This document shows positions 1,984 through 48,904 of a DNA stretch of 64,000 nt, piece by piece. The DNA comes from Candidatus Wildermuthbacteria bacterium (GTDB taxonomy: Bacteria; Patescibacteriota; Minisyncoccia; Minisyncoccales; UBA10102). The stretch spans positions 72,983 to 136,982 of the forward strand of contig JACPMK010000002.1 in the NCBI GenBank assembly GCA_016186115.1, in the 5' to 3' direction. The notes under the pieces were generated by a model. The model worked only from the letters and a program-made list of their open reading frames with translations. It made no database searches and had not been told where the DNA came from. Position 1 is the stretch's first letter; every line of letters begins with the position of its first letter. The position numbers and the translations under genes are program-made.

Positions 1984-1986
1984 AAC

Positions 1987-2937
1987 ATGAGAATTATTTT
2001 TTTGGGGACATCAGAGTTTAGCACAATCGTTTTGGAAAAACTTGTAGAGTCCGGCATGAAGCCGGTTTTGGTTATAACCGTGCCAGATAAACCCGTCGGC
2101 CGCAAACAAATTCTTGTTTCTCCGCCCGTGAAGCTTACGGCACAGAAATATGGTATTGAAGTTTTGCAGCCAGAGGAGAGTATACAACACACTAAATACC
2201 AAATACTCAATACTGCGCCTGATCTTATCGTTGTTGCTGCTTACGGGCAGATTCTTCCTAAAGAAATTTTGGATATTCCGAAATACGGGGTATTAAATGT
2301 TCATCCTTCTGTGCTGCCAAAGTATCGCGGCCCTTCCCCAGTGCAAACTGCAATTTTGAATGGCGATGAAAAGACAGGGGTTACAATTATGCTGATGGAT
2401 GAGAAGGTGGACCATGGGCCAGTCCTTGCTGCGCAGGAATTTTCAATTTTCAATTTTCAATTTTCAAACGGGAAGCCAACAACGCCGGAATTGAAAAAGA
2501 AATTAGCGGAAGTCGGGGCTCAATTGCTTGTTGAGGTAATTCCGCAATGGATCGATGGGAACATAAGGCCCCGGCTGCAAGATGACAGCAAGGCCACGTA
2601 TACAAAGATTATTCGCAAAGAAGACGGGAGAATCGATTGGACGAAGAATGCGGAATATATTGAGCGGCAGGTTCGGGCATTTCAGCCATGGCCCGGTACC
2701 TATACATTTTACAATCATACTCTTGTAAAAATTCTAAAATCTGGTATCGTATTAACTTCGGGAGGAGTATCCCCTATTCCGGGGACAGTATTTTTCTCTT
2801 CTGAAAAGAAAATCGCTGTGGTCGCGGGGAAAGATGCGCTCTTGGTTGAAAAGTTGCAACTCGAGGGAGGCAACCCCATGCCTTCGAGGGAATTTCTTCT
2901 CGGCCATAGAAATTTTATTGGAACAACCCTCCAATAA
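1987..2937 (+). CDS. fmt: Methionyl-tRNA formyltransferase
   Basis: The N-terminus MRIIFLGTSEFS, the HPSVLPKYRGPSP motif and the C-terminal Fmt domain are present, and the length is typical. Confidence 0.95.
   Translation: MRIIFLGTSEFSTIVLEKLVESGMKPVLVITVPDKPVGRKQILVSPPVKLTAQKYGIEVLQPEESIQHTKYQILNTAPDLIVVAAYGQILPKEILDIPKYGVLNVHPSVLPKYRGPSPVQTAILNGDEKTGVTIMLMDEKVDHGPVLAAQEFSIFNFQFSNGKPTTPELKKKLAEVGAQLLVEVIPQWIDGNIRPRLQDDSKATYTKIIRKEDGRIDWTKNAEYIERQVRAFQPWPGTYTFYNHTLVKILKSGIVLTSGGVSPIPGTVFFSSEKKIAVVAGKDALLVEKLQLEGGNPMPSREFLLGHRNFIGTTLQ
2438..2465 (+). repeat. Perfect heptanucleotide tandem array (AATTTTC)x4 inside fmt
   Basis: Read directly from the sequence as aattttc aattttc aattttc aattttc. 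It encodes FSIFNFQFS. Confidence 0.9.
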
Positions 2938-23104: not shown

Positions 23105-24529
23105 ATGATGAAGGTGTCAAATACGCTGTCTCGGCGGAAGGAAAATTTGCGGCCGAGAAAGAATAAAGAAATACATCTTTTTGTCTGCGGACCGACCGTA
23201 TACGATTTTTCGCATATCGGCCATGCCAGAACCTATATTGCTTTTGATGTGATTGTGAAATATTTGCGAAGCATTGGTTTTCGCGTGGAGTATCTTCAGA
23301 ATATTACCGATGTTGACGACAAAATTATCAATCGGGCAAAAGAATTAGACACGAGTCATATCGCCTTGGCAGAAAAGTTCGAAAAAGATTATCGGGATGA
23401 CATGAAAACGCTCAAGGTGGACAGTGTGAGCAGATATGCAAGAGCAACCAGACATATCAAAGAAATCATTGGGCAGATCCAACGGCTATTGCAAAAGGGT
23501 TATGCTTATGAAATTACTGGAGACGGGATTTACTACGATATCTCGCGATTCAAACGCTATGGCAAGCTTTCCGGCAGAACAAGCACGCAGGCAGAAGATG
23601 CAATTTCAAGAATTGATGAATCGATACATAAGCGCAATAAAGGCGATTTTGCGTTGTGGAAGCTTACCCCGCGAAGCCCAAAGGGCGAAGTGGGATTCGT
23701 GGAGTCAAGCTGGCCAAGCCCGTGGGGAAAGGGGCGGCCCGGCTGGCATATCGAGGATACAGCAATTACCGAAAAATATTTCGGGCCGCAATACGATATT
23801 CATGGCGGAGCGAGAGATTTATTATTTCCTCATCATGAAGCAGAAATAGCGCAGATGGAGGCACTTTCTGGCAAGCGACCCATGGCAAAGTATTGGCTGC
23901 ACACGGGATTCCTCACTATTCATGGAGAAAAGATGTCGAAATCTCTTGGAAACTTTATTACCATTCGGGATTTTACAGAGAAATATTCAGCCCGCCTCCT
24001 TCGTTTTTTGGTTTTGAAAACGCATTACCGCTCCCCTATTGACTACAGCGAAGAAATGGTAGAACAAGCACGGCATGAGTTGGCAAGAATAGATGAATTT
24101 GTAGGCAAACTTCATGAAAAATCCGAAATCCGAAGCACGAAGCATGAAACAAATTCAAAATTAACTTTAAAATTCAAAAAGGATTTTACAAAAGCGATGG
24201 AAGATGATTTCAATACTCCAATTGCAATTGCATCGTTGTTTCAGTTGATTAATCAGGGTAATATCTTTTTGGATAAAGACCGTATTGGCCGCACCGCCGC
24301 AAAAGCGCTGCTCGATTTCTTTCAAGAGATCGATACGATTTTTGGATTTATTTTCTGGCGGGAAAGAGCTGCAATTTCTCCCGATATTAAACAACTCATA
24401 CGGGAACGTGAGGAATATCGCAAAAAAGGAAATTGGGAAAAAGCAGACGAACTGCGCGCAGTTTTGAAGACACGCGGCTGGACCGTGGAAGATACCGCCA
24501 CTGGTCCAAAAATCAAAAAATCTCCCTAG
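23105..24529 (+). CDS. cysS: Cysteine--tRNA ligase
   Basis: HIGHARTY and KMSKSLGN class-I motifs are present. Confidence 0.95.
   Translation: MMKVSNTLSRRKENLRPRKNKEIHLFVCGPTVYDFSHIGHARTYIAFDVIVKYLRSIGFRVEYLQNITDVDDKIINRAKELDTSHIALAEKFEKDYRDDMKTLKVDSVSRYARATRHIKEIIGQIQRLLQKGYAYEITGDGIYYDISRFKRYGKLSGRTSTQAEDAISRIDESIHKRNKGDFALWKLTPRSPKGEVGFVESSWPSPWGKGRPGWHIEDTAITEKYFGPQYDIHGGARDLLFPHHEAEIAQMEALSGKRPMAKYWLHTGFLTIHGEKMSKSLGNFITIRDFTEKYSARLLRFLVLKTHYRSPIDYSEEMVEQARHELARIDEFVGKLHEKSEIRSTKHETNSKLTLKFKKDFTKAMEDDFNTPIAIASLFQLINQGNIFLDKDRIGRTAAKALLDFFQEIDTIFGFIFWRERAAISPDIKQLIREREEYRKKGNWEKADELRAVLKTRGWTVEDTATGPKIKKSP
24117..24180 (+). repeat. Degenerate heptanucleotide array inside cysS (family copy 1)
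   Basis: tccgaaa tccgaag cacgaag catgaaa caaattc aaaatta actttaa aattcaa. It encodes SEIRSTKHETNSKLTLKFKK. Confidence 0.8.
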
Positions 24530-41498: not shown

Positions 41499-41915
41499 TT
41501 ATTTGAGTTCTACTTTTGCTCCTGCTGCTTCAAGTTTCTTCTGGATGTCTTCTGCCTCTGCTTTGTTTGCTCCTTCTTTTACTACTTGAGGAGTAGTGGC
41601 AGCTGCATCAACAAGATCCTTCGCTTCTTTCAATCCTTTTCCTGTTACGTCCCGCACCACCTTGATGACTTCAATTTTCTTGTCCCCTATTGCAGCTAAC
41701 TGGACATTAAAGATGCTTTTCTCTTCTTCCGCTGGAGCAGCACCTGCTGCTGGAGCAGCACCTGCTGCAACCACGGGAGCCGAAGCTGATACTCCGAATT
41801 TCTTCTCTAGAATTTTTACCAATTCGGCAAGCTCAACTATAGTCAATTTCTCAATACTTTCGACTAATGGTTCAAATTTTTTTGGAACTTCGATTACTTC
41901 TTTTTCGTCTGCCAT
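41499..41915 (-). CDS. rplL: 50S ribosomal protein L7/L12
   Basis: [19 protein letters not shown], an Ala/Pro hinge, and a C-terminal domain ending [13 protein letters not shown]. The start is ambiguous (41915 or 41927). Confidence 0.9.
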
Positions 41916-45334: not shown

Positions 45335-46048
45335 TCATTTTGAGATGATCTTTCCGTGTTTGTTGTGCCACTCCCCAATTTTTTTATGATCACCAGAGAG
45401 TAAAGCTTTAGGCGCTTTCCATTGAATTCCGGGAGCTGGCTCAAAAACCTCTGGGCGAGTGTATTGAGGATGCTCCAAGAACCCTTCGACAAGCTCAGGG
45501 CAAGCTTCCCCTTTTTTAGATATGAGATGTTGCGCCAAAAACTCGGGTTTTCCAATAACTCCTGGGATAAGCCGCGTAACGGTTTCAATTATAATCATGG
45601 CTGGCAGTTCCCCTCCCATAAGAACATAATCCCCTATTGAAATTTTTTCATCTGCAATGTACCTTGCCACTCGTTCATCAATTCCTTCGTATCTGCCACA
45701 GATCATAATGATCTGATCAAGCTTGGAGAATTCGTATGCCTTCTTTTGGGTAAATTTCTTCCCTCTTGGCGTGAACAGGATAATTTTTGAATTTGTTTCG
45801 GATTTCGGACTTCGTGCTTCGGATTTTAACTCCTGTACCGCCTTGTATATAGGTTCTATTTTCATTACCATTCCCAGTCCCCCGCCAAAGGGTTTTTCGT
45901 CAACGGTTTTATGCTTGTCATCGGCCCAATCCCGCAGATTATGGACGCGTATATCAAAAATTCCTTTCTTCTTTGCTCTTTTGATCAATGATTCATTGCA
46001 AAAAGGTTCAAACAATTCTGGGAAAATTGTAATCACATCAAATATCAT
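45335..46048 (-). CDS. trmD: tRNA (guanine37-N1)-methyltransferase
   Basis: MIFDVITIFPELFEPF, CGRYEGIDERV and DYVLMGGELPAM are present. Confidence 0.95.
   Translation of the reverse strand: MIFDVITIFPELFEPFCNESLIKRAKKKGIFDIRVHNLRDWADDKHKTVDEKPFGGGLGMVMKIEPIYKAVQELKSEARSPKSETNSKIILFTPRGKKFTQKKAYEFSKLDQIIMICGRYEGIDERVARYIADEKISIGDYVLMGGELPAMIIIETVTRLIPGVIGKPEFLAQHLISKKGEACPELVEGFLEHPQYTRPEVFEPAPGIQWKAPKALLSGDHKKIGEWHNKHGKIISK
45785..45827 (-). repeat. Degenerate heptanucleotide array inside trmD (family copy 2)
   Basis: Minus sense reads aaaatccgaag cacgaag tccgaaa tccgaaa caaattcaaaa. It encodes KSEARSPKSETNSK. Confidence 0.8.
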
Positions 46049-48244: not shown

Positions 48245-48904
48245 TCATATTCGACACACTTGCAAGTCCCTAATTGGACGGAAGGTTTTGCGGTGGATGG
48301 CGCAAGGACCGTATTGTTTGAGCATTTCGAGGTGCATGGCGGTGCCATATCCCTTATGGCGATCGAACCCATATTGCGGGTATCTCTGGTGATACTGAAG
48401 CATGAGGCGGTCTCTTGTTACCTTGGCAATGATTGAAGCTGCAGCGCAAGAAAATACCTTTTCGTCTCCCTTTACGATCGGTTTTTGTGGAATGTCGCGA
48501 AAAGATATTTTCATGTTTCCATCGATCATTAAAAAATCTGGGGTTCGGAGATTTTTTTCCAGATCGCGTACCGCTTTTTCCATAGCCAGTTTGGTGGCTT
48601 GGAAAATATTGATTTGATCAATTATTTTTTCTGAAACTATGCCAACCCCCCATGCGATATGAGGATGGACAGTGAGCAAGCTATACCATTGAAGCCGTAT
48701 TTTTGGAGTGAGTAATTTGGAATCGCGGATTTTCCCTTGAAGATTCTTAAAATCCGAAGCACGAAATCCGAAATTCGAAACTGCTACTGCCGCAGCGGTT
48801 ACGGGACCGGCAAGCGGTCCTCTTCCTGCCTCATCAAGCCCAACAACAACTTGATACCCAATTTTCCACAGCTGCTTTTCTTCGGCAAAATTTGGCGTTT
48901 GCAT
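48245..48904 (-). CDS. rnhB: Ribonuclease HII
   Basis: GLDEAGRGPLAGPV and DSKLLT are present. I prefer the start at ATG 48904; the ORF-track start 48958 would overlap dnaE. Confidence 0.85.
   Translation of the reverse strand: MQTPNFAEEKQLWKIGYQVVVGLDEAGRGPLAGPVTAAAVAVSNFGFRASDFKNLQGKIRDSKLLTPKIRLQWYSLLTVHPHIAWGVGIVSEKIIDQINIFQATKLAMEKAVRDLEKNLRTPDFLMIDGNMKISFRDIPQKPIVKGDEKVFSCAAASIIAKVTRDRLMLQYHQRYPQYGFDRHKGYGTAMHLEMLKQYGPCAIHRKTFRPIRDLQVCRI
48747..48780 (+). repeat. Degenerate heptanucleotide array inside rnhB, antisense to the gene (family copy 3)
   Basis: ttaaaa tccgaag cacgaaa tccgaaa ttcgaaa. It is read antisense as SNFGFRASDFK. The 19-mer ttaaaatccgaagcacgaa is identical to copy 2. 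Confidence 0.8.

Follow-up and report, generated by a model that had tools for sequence, protein, structure and literature searches.

Rickettsia palindromic elements (RPEs) are dispersed, stop-free repeats that stand in frame in unrelated housekeeping genes, at sites compatible with the fold of the host protein (PMC10969869). Arrays of the heptamer TAACTGA are found in distant phyla (Beggiatoaceae, Cyanobacteria, Bacteroidetes), mostly in intergenic regions and sometimes in open reading frames (ORFs), and neither the mechanism of their transfer nor their function is known (PMC4679880). In Geobacter metallireducens, multicopy elements made of four GGACCGG units occur between and within genes (PMC2700814). 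Here, an array of heptamers within trmD, the gene for tRNA (guanine37-N1)-methyltransferase, was analyzed in a 64,000-nucleotide stretch of contig JACPMK010000002.1 of Candidatus Wildermuthbacteria, referred to as the window. As judged from sequence comparison, the segment belongs to a family of AT-rich repeats that occurs in many phyla and has apparently not been described. With a probability of roughly 0.58, it represents a single repeat arm that became fixed in a permissive connector of the enzyme, where it serves as an inert hydrophilic linker and evolves as a coding minisatellite through slippage and conversion. The behavior of the trmD arm is closest to that of RPEs, a likeness of behavior only, while its build is closest to the cross-phylum heptamer repeats of unknown function (TAACTGA) and to the four-heptamer elements of Geobacter metallireducens.

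The comparison with these systems can be drawn more precisely. Like RPEs, stop-free arms are located in frame in trmD, cysS and rnhB of the window, and in genes for DNA ligase, Mur ligase and PIF1 helicase elsewhere. RPEs, however, are whole palindromes of about 100-150 bp restricted to Rickettsia, whereas here one arm of 35-66 nt, built of 7-nt units, is encountered in many phyla with almost no phylum-specific divergence; its size and its Parcubacteria-type host set it apart. With the TAACTGA repeats the present family shares the occurrence of arrays of one specific heptamer in distant phyla, both between and in genes. Nevertheless, the unit is different, and the TAACTGA arrays are plain direct repeats that carry stops in the forward orientation and mostly lie just upstream of start codons, in contrast to a defined arm of ~60 nt that has a non-repetitive inner part, usually forms inverted pairs, is free of stops in sense and displays no positional bias. 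The Geobacter metallireducens elements are likewise multicopy tandem heptanucleotides with inter- and intragenic positions, but they are GC-rich, the report on them concerns a single genome, and its description mentions no inverted arms.

The array and its host gene are located as follows.

45785-45826, minus strand: trmD array, six 7-nt units (42 nt) encoding K75-K88 of TrmD; a shortened copy of one arm of the dispersed heptamer-arm repeat.

45335-46048, minus strand: trmD, tRNA (guanine37-N1)-methyltransferase; the host gene, an ORF of 237 aa.

The original prediction had described a heptamer array within trmD in the sense orientation, and the minus-strand sequence was found at that place: the 42-mer at 45785-45826 is AAATCCGAAGCACGAAGTCCGAAATCCGAAACAAATTCAAAA, composed of the units AAATCCG, AAGCACG, AAGTCCG, AAATCCG, AAACAAA and TTCAAAA in this order. 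It occurs once in the window and in none of 100 shuffles, and its tandem head-to-tail heptamers were registered by Tandem Repeats Finder (period 7, 4.4 copies, 75% matches, 45796-45826). The encoded peptide, KSEARSPKSETNSK, is in frame and is flanked by L74 and by I89, which belongs to the segment ILFTPRG. The identity of the host ORF as TrmD is established by Pfam (PF01746, E = 1.3e-47) and by matches to 27 TrmD sequences of the PDB (E down to 3e-52). Moreover, the array carries the hallmarks of the repeat family, namely NNNCGAA-type heptamers followed by the non-repetitive inner segment GAAACAAATTCAAA... An nhmmer profile of 76 model positions, derived from 124 arms at loci of other phyla, matched it with E = 2.5e-11 over model positions 4-51 (envelope 45783-45830, minus strand). 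Exactly three matches to this profile were present in the window, all intragenic, the next best having an E of ~5. The other two are listed below.

24115-24175, plus strand: cysS copy, sense, encoding KSEIRSTKHETNSKLTLKFKK; an almost complete arm (nhmmer E = 2.7e-9, model positions 4-67).

48747-48781, plus strand: rnhB copy, antisense since the gene is on the minus strand, encoding SNFGFRASDF (nhmmer E = 5.6e-7).

The earlier grouping of the trmD array with the rnhB and cysS copies is thus upheld, all three matching one arm profile. The 19-nt identity claimed between the trmD and rnhB copies was confirmed as TTAAAATCCGAAGCACGAA, and the 15-mers said to be common to the trmD and cysS copies amount to four, in two blocks (the 17-nt AAATCCGAAGCACGAAG and the 15-mer GAAACAAATTCAAAA). 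No inverted partner arm was present within about 250 nt of any of the three copies. The cysS arm occupies a variable stretch that links the catalytic and DALR domains, and it substitutes sequence there rather than adding length. The rnhB arm adds ~9 aa; neither the syntenic orthologs of L122 and L125 nor T. maritima RNase HII contain it, which makes it lineage-specific. One independent public assembly of the same organism, L129, stops precisely where the rnhB arm ends (window position 48781), while another, L128, reads through; contigs often end at repeats, as L129 does here.

The nearest non-self TrmDs are Parcubacteria proteins with 62-70% identity, and all Parcubacteria trmD orthologs that were read as DNA possess a 7-nt array at the same site and in the same register, directly after a Leu codon. 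It can be observed that the number of units differs between lineages, being 4, 6 (the window) or 9. A whole arm of nine units is found in L121, L122, L124, L125 and L134 (profile E of 1e-10 to 6e-13), and the window copy differs from this long form exactly by the lack of three inner units (21 nt). Elsewhere the site is occupied by a perfect tandem array, (AAATCAA)4, in L132, by AAATCAA/AAGTCAA units in L133, and by AAATTAA AAGTGAA AAATGAA AAGCGAA in L127. As protein, the loop measures 22 aa in several orthologs (KSEIRNPKSETNSKFKTLKSKT) and 11 aa in most (KSKIKNQKSKI). Furthermore, the DNA of the array varies less than the remainder of trmD: nucleotide identity of the array between lineages is 0.78-0.91, as against 0.32-0.43 at third codon positions and a protein identity of ~0.7, and the array is the most conserved 42-nt segment of trmD in 7/9 lineage pairs. 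Such identity, far above the neutral level and retained although third positions are saturated, excludes a neutrally decaying ancient insert. Two options are left for the conservation of the array: either other copies have repeatedly served as its template, or selection acts directly on the DNA or RNA. The unit AAGCACG recurs in separate lineages.

At the protein level, the array is located in a variable connector. The original prediction had assigned it to the linker preceding the conserved ILFTPRG, and indeed no column from A70 to L91 is invariant among 34 orthologs, so the segment does not align to conserved TrmD residues. The segment is ~7 residues longer than solved TrmDs, for example 3ky7, and a 7-residue gap appears in the PDB alignments. 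Mapped onto an AlphaFold2 model of TrmD (mean predicted local distance difference test score, pLDDT, 70.6), the array covers the end of a helix (K75-A78 of helix 64-78) and an 8-residue coil (R79-N86, coil 79-86), after which a strand (87-98) leads from S87 into the FTPRG motif. Taken together, the alignment gap, the lack of an invariant column and the model place the array in a connector and not in the TrmD core, and we infer that it is translated as an inert hydrophilic linker that takes no part in catalysis. Its description as an insertion stands insofar as the segment is longer than in solved TrmDs, but the array is neither discrete nor private to this gene, given the same-site arrays in orthologs and the family in many phyla. 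The earlier reading is therefore correct as far as it reaches, but too narrow.

The loop site appears to be a general permissive spot, its length ranging from 6 to 65 aa across diverse representatives clustered at 50%. From inspection, we take the long loops of P0174/P0229 (NYQLPTT), P0273 and P0183 to resemble peptides of other repeat types; presumably NYQLPTT corresponds to (AACTACC)3 and NYQLPTTNYQL to (AACTACC)n, with NPNDQIPMTNKIQNSKS and HEIASSSTPSRPRNDS as others (representatives P0174, P0229, P0183, P0273, P0151). If these long loops are indeed repeat peptides, the TrmD loop has captured different repeats repeatedly.

The distribution of the family was examined with a 24-mer common to the three window copies, AAATCCGAAGCACGAARNNNGAAA, whose chance expectation is <1 and which was scanned against GTDB contigs with one genome per species. 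It was present in at least 120 contigs, and carriers among the matches listed belong to Planctomycetota, Desulfobacterota, Patescibacteria, Aminicenantes, Omnitrophota, Verrucomicrobiota/Lentisphaerota, Gammaproteobacteria and Chloroflexi. Usually, the 24-mer lies in the left arm of a long AT-rich intergenic inverted repeat, which runs from several NNNCGAA-type heptamers through GAAACAAATTCAAATGACCAAAATTCAAAAC and a variable loop into the reverse complement. The canonical arm of ~60 nt consists of NNNCGAA-type heptamers (AAATCCG, AAATTCG, AAGCACG) and then GAAACAAATTCAAA(T/A)...CAAAAC. In the 24-mer loci, 86 convergent pairs with a median loop of 27 nt were counted, together with 60 single arms, 4 tandem pairs and 0 divergent pairs. 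Arm identity, which the choice of all loci by one 24-mer inflates equally in every comparison, was 0.73 for arms of one locus, 0.72 for arms of one phylum and 0.71 for arms of different phyla. The GC content of the arms (0.31-0.40) is independent of that of the host (flanks 0.33-0.73), and the loops are unrelated in sequence from element to element. Each of the two arms of a hairpin is a mosaic of unit variants, and native pairs are no more stable than chimeric ones (duplex energies of -0.725 vs -0.773 kcal/mol/nt, native more stable in 31/77), which demonstrates that the conserved unit is the arm and not the stem. The reading of the family as a structured RNA selected for its stem is weakened by the same comparison.

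The arm is free of stops in all three sense frames. Its sense peptides are strongly hydrophilic, with a mean hydropathy of about -1.5 to -2.2, and its antisense peptides are rich in F/G/R/I. Single arms in frame were also identified in real genes of other phyla, as follows.

L040:5342-7162, minus strand: ATP-dependent DNA ligase with two arms in the C-terminal domain, from a Pseudomonadales metagenome-assembled genome (MAG).

L060:1-1218, minus strand: Mur ligase C domain with an in-frame arm, Paceibacterota.

L100:5043-6725, minus strand: PIF1-like helicase with an in-frame arm.

A census of protein families by arm-encoded peptides yielded 63 candidates, none with a Pfam domain. A local cluster was observed in a Saccharibacteria MAG contig (L024:2937-6357), where one single arm and four complete hairpins are gathered within 3.4 kb, with short open frames only between the hairpins. 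Searches of the literature by DNA strings, by encoded peptides in full text and by description retrieved no account of the repeat, only analogues. A viral origin is not supported, the 24-mer being present in only 5 of 2.9 million viral contigs.

On this basis, a course of events can be proposed for trmD. An arm would have entered the coding sequence in an ancestor of the Parcubacteria TrmD lineage, at the permissive connector between helix and strand. Its survival at this place may be due to the absence of stops from its sense frames, to the preserved reading frame and to the strong hydrophilicity of the K/S/E/R/N peptide that it specifies. Units would subsequently have been gained, lost and homogenized by replication slippage, with frame-preserving outcomes alone persisting. 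The array would also have been re-templated repeatedly from other copies of the family, by gene conversion or recombination, which could hold some lineages, that of the window included, near the family consensus. Several observations weigh against this proposal. Donors for conversion are few, with three arms in the 64-kb window, none of them intergenic, and with the trmD copy only in L122 and L125 (~20 kb each). Direct selection on DNA or RNA would explain the conservation of synonymous sites just as well. The four assemblies of this organism display no polymorphism in length or sequence, so slippage was not directly observed. The scatter of canonical CG-containing arrays among short, degenerate ones on the ortholog tree speaks for the proposal, but this is a neighbor-joining tree of 211 columns, so the scatter may partly be tree error. 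Finally, the choice of every cross-phylum locus by one 24-mer hides divergent variants, besides raising the arm identities.

The direct selection just mentioned leads to the alternative that survives best, although it is doubtful. The ~60-nt arm might be a cross-phylum cis-acting signal, either a platform to which a widely conserved protein binds and reads units of 7 nt on DNA or RNA, or the outcome of templated DNA writing, and it would be kept near one consensus by selection or rewriting even within trmD, where the copy would be selected for a cis effect on trmD or its mRNA and its translation would be incidental. A precedent for such reading is the omega protein of pSM19035, a ribbon-helix-helix protein that binds contiguous 7-bp units, direct or inverted, on double-stranded DNA with one unit per dimer; its operators differ in that the heptad is WATCACW and that the system belongs to a plasmid and to specific promoters, and no such protein is known to act on the heptamer-arm family. 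Conservation at synonymous sites far above the rest of trmD agrees with a signal, as do the uniformity of arms across phyla (0.71-0.73) irrespective of a host GC of 0.33-0.73, the arm rather than the stem as the conserved unit, and the lack of transposase, integrase or target-site duplication signatures in the examined loci. However, in ~85% of close TrmD orthologs the array is degenerate or short and lacks the CGAA core, which implies that no function is needed at the trmD site, and the strand is inconsistent within one genome, the rnhB copy being antisense and the cysS copy sense. The intergenic forms likewise have no preferred position or orientation relative to genes: hairpins lie in 57% co-directional, 22% convergent and 22% divergent contexts vs a background of 65/17/18% (crude gene calls), and single arms show no preference for a strand or a gene end. 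Moreover, the trmD copy lacks a structure of its own, since a 126-nt RNA around the array folds no better than shuffles (z = -0.21), and Rfam at gathering thresholds returned tRNAs only for the window and nine hairpin-bearing loci.

Dedicated terminator and leader readings of the repeat were rejected, the hairpins and single arms being without positional or strand bias. Integron attC sites were rejected as well, because the outer ends of the family are heptamer arrays without RYYYAAC / GTTRRRY core sites. The strings CAAAAC/GTTTTG stand at the inner ends of the arms, no integrase was seen near the hairpins, and the intervening genes are housekeeping genes.

Improbable, to a higher degree, is a recent insertion of an active element resembling a miniature transposable element with inverted repeats (MITE) into trmD of this genome. 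MITEs, together with repetitive extragenic palindromes (REPs) and bacterial interspersed mosaic elements (BIMEs), resemble the family in being small, non-coding, multicopy intergenic inverted repeats amid ordinary genes. REPs are outlined as GC-rich palindromes of 20-40 bp, many tagged GTAG or CGTC and species-specific (PMC3733652), whereas here the arms are ~60 nt long, have 31-40% GC and end outward in AAATYCG.../...CGRATTT. The inverted arms of the intergenic form might correspond to the terminal inverted repeats of MITEs, and small size, many copies, the lineage-specific rnhB copy absent from the syntenic L122 and L125, and the documented in-frame insertion of MITEs and RPEs (PMC10969869, PMC5896051) would all accord with such an element. 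Nevertheless, the orthologs read as DNA, with only 62-70% protein identity, all have the array at the same codon boundary and register, and trmD holds one arm only. MITEs have target-site duplications and family-specific internal sequence; here no duplications are detectable, the loops are unrelated among elements, and the arms do not co-evolve. Flanking direct repeats measured 0.63 nt vs a null of 0.45 +/- 0.08, and 1.91 vs 1.82 +/- 0.10 nt when offsets up to 3 nt were allowed, although element boundaries are fuzzy and very short duplications could escape detection. In the 8-kb loci searched, paired arms at distances of 0.3-6 kb had neither a transposase nor an integrase between them.

An autonomous parent element or a cassette array was rejected on the same 8-kb loci, since only housekeeping genes lie between distant arms, namely those for ClpP, M24 peptidase, YicC, CobS, PIG-L deacetylase and a porin.

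Very improbable is a home-grown simple repeat, in which a K/S-rich loop expanded in situ by slippage and the likeness to the family reflects convergence of A-rich low-complexity sequence. Heptanucleotides are given as the commonest long simple repeats in prokaryotes in the statement that PMC4679880 takes from Mrazek 2007, and the window agrees with this prevalence, with 5 period-7 arrays observed vs 0.2 expected and none at periods 8-12, an enrichment that also counts in favor of the repeat-arm reading. In addition, the L132 array is a perfect tandem, and fmt contains an unrelated perfect (AATTTTC)x4.3 array. Yet the non-repetitive inner part GAAACAAATTCAAAA(TTCAAAA...) is common to cysS and to copies of other phyla, profile E-values reach about 1e-10 to 1e-13 over 66 nt, the exact 24-mer is shared by at least 120 contigs and the odd unit AAGCACG is recurrent in separate lineages. 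Current data are thus against this reading. Lastly, an assembly or sequencing artefact can practically be dismissed: although the public contig L129 ends exactly at the rnhB arm, four independent public assemblies of the organism have 100% identity to the window throughout trmD, which rules the array out as an assembly artefact, the frame is intact, and orthologs from unrelated samples have the same feature.

Other repeats were observed in genes of the window. A second dispersed-repeat fragment is present in trmD at 45481-45500 (minus strand), GCCCTGAGCTTGTCGAAGGG, whose translation, ACPELVEG, falls in TrmD's second variable loop; residues 177-200 have pLDDT <50 there in the AlphaFold model, and the ortholog P0102 has SERAKRVEG at this loop. 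This 20-mer is single in the window and has exact matches in at least 120 metagenome contigs, where it forms one arm of a GC-rich hairpin repeat (ccgttcGCCCTGAGCTTGTCGAAGGGc ... gcttcgacaagctcagcacgaacgg) that is sometimes in tandem. Downstream of trmD, the syntenic Parcubacteria loci contain small GIY-YIG nuclease genes (L122:11493-11753, L125:11343-11714) where the window has three tRNA genes between trmD and def. In fmt (methionyl-tRNA formyltransferase, 1984-2934, plus strand), the perfect (AATTTTC)x4.3 array at 2438-2467 (plus strand) is in frame and encodes EFSIFNFQFSN, ~6 aa extra compared with the solved Fmt 4iqf; by inspection, its unit looks like the source of ISNFQF(S/P)IS at the TrmD loop in P0065, P0072 and P0086. 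A second period-7 array of fmt, at 2191-2214 (plus strand), is of the ACTAAAT type (3.4 copies, 82% matches) and encodes TKYQILNT. At 41731-41768, rplL contains a perfect 18-nt tandem repeat, GCTGGAGCAGCACCTGCT x2.1, which encodes the Ala/Gly/Pro-rich hinge of ribosomal protein L7/L12.

In-frame protein segments derived from repeats are known already; what is new is a heptamer-built arm that is common to many phyla and almost unchanged. An arm of ~60 nt that remains nearly the same in phyla of 33-73% GC, without phylum-specific divergence, is not explained by vertical descent, and the usual hallmarks of transposition were not found in the examined loci. Should there be a conserved partner protein or a mechanism that writes the arm, the repeat family would be a tractable route to it. 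The trmD site itself offers a natural series of 4, 6 and 9 units on which slippage and gene conversion could be compared, in a gene where frameshifts are lethal. Furthermore, repeat arms account for K/S/E/R/N-rich and F/G/R/I-rich peptide strings like those in frames across the cross-phylum loci. In reduced genomes of the candidate phyla radiation, dispersed repeat DNA thus makes up part of the surface loops of enzymes that are essential and otherwise highly conserved, and this affects the reading of insertions, the alignment of orthologs and annotation.

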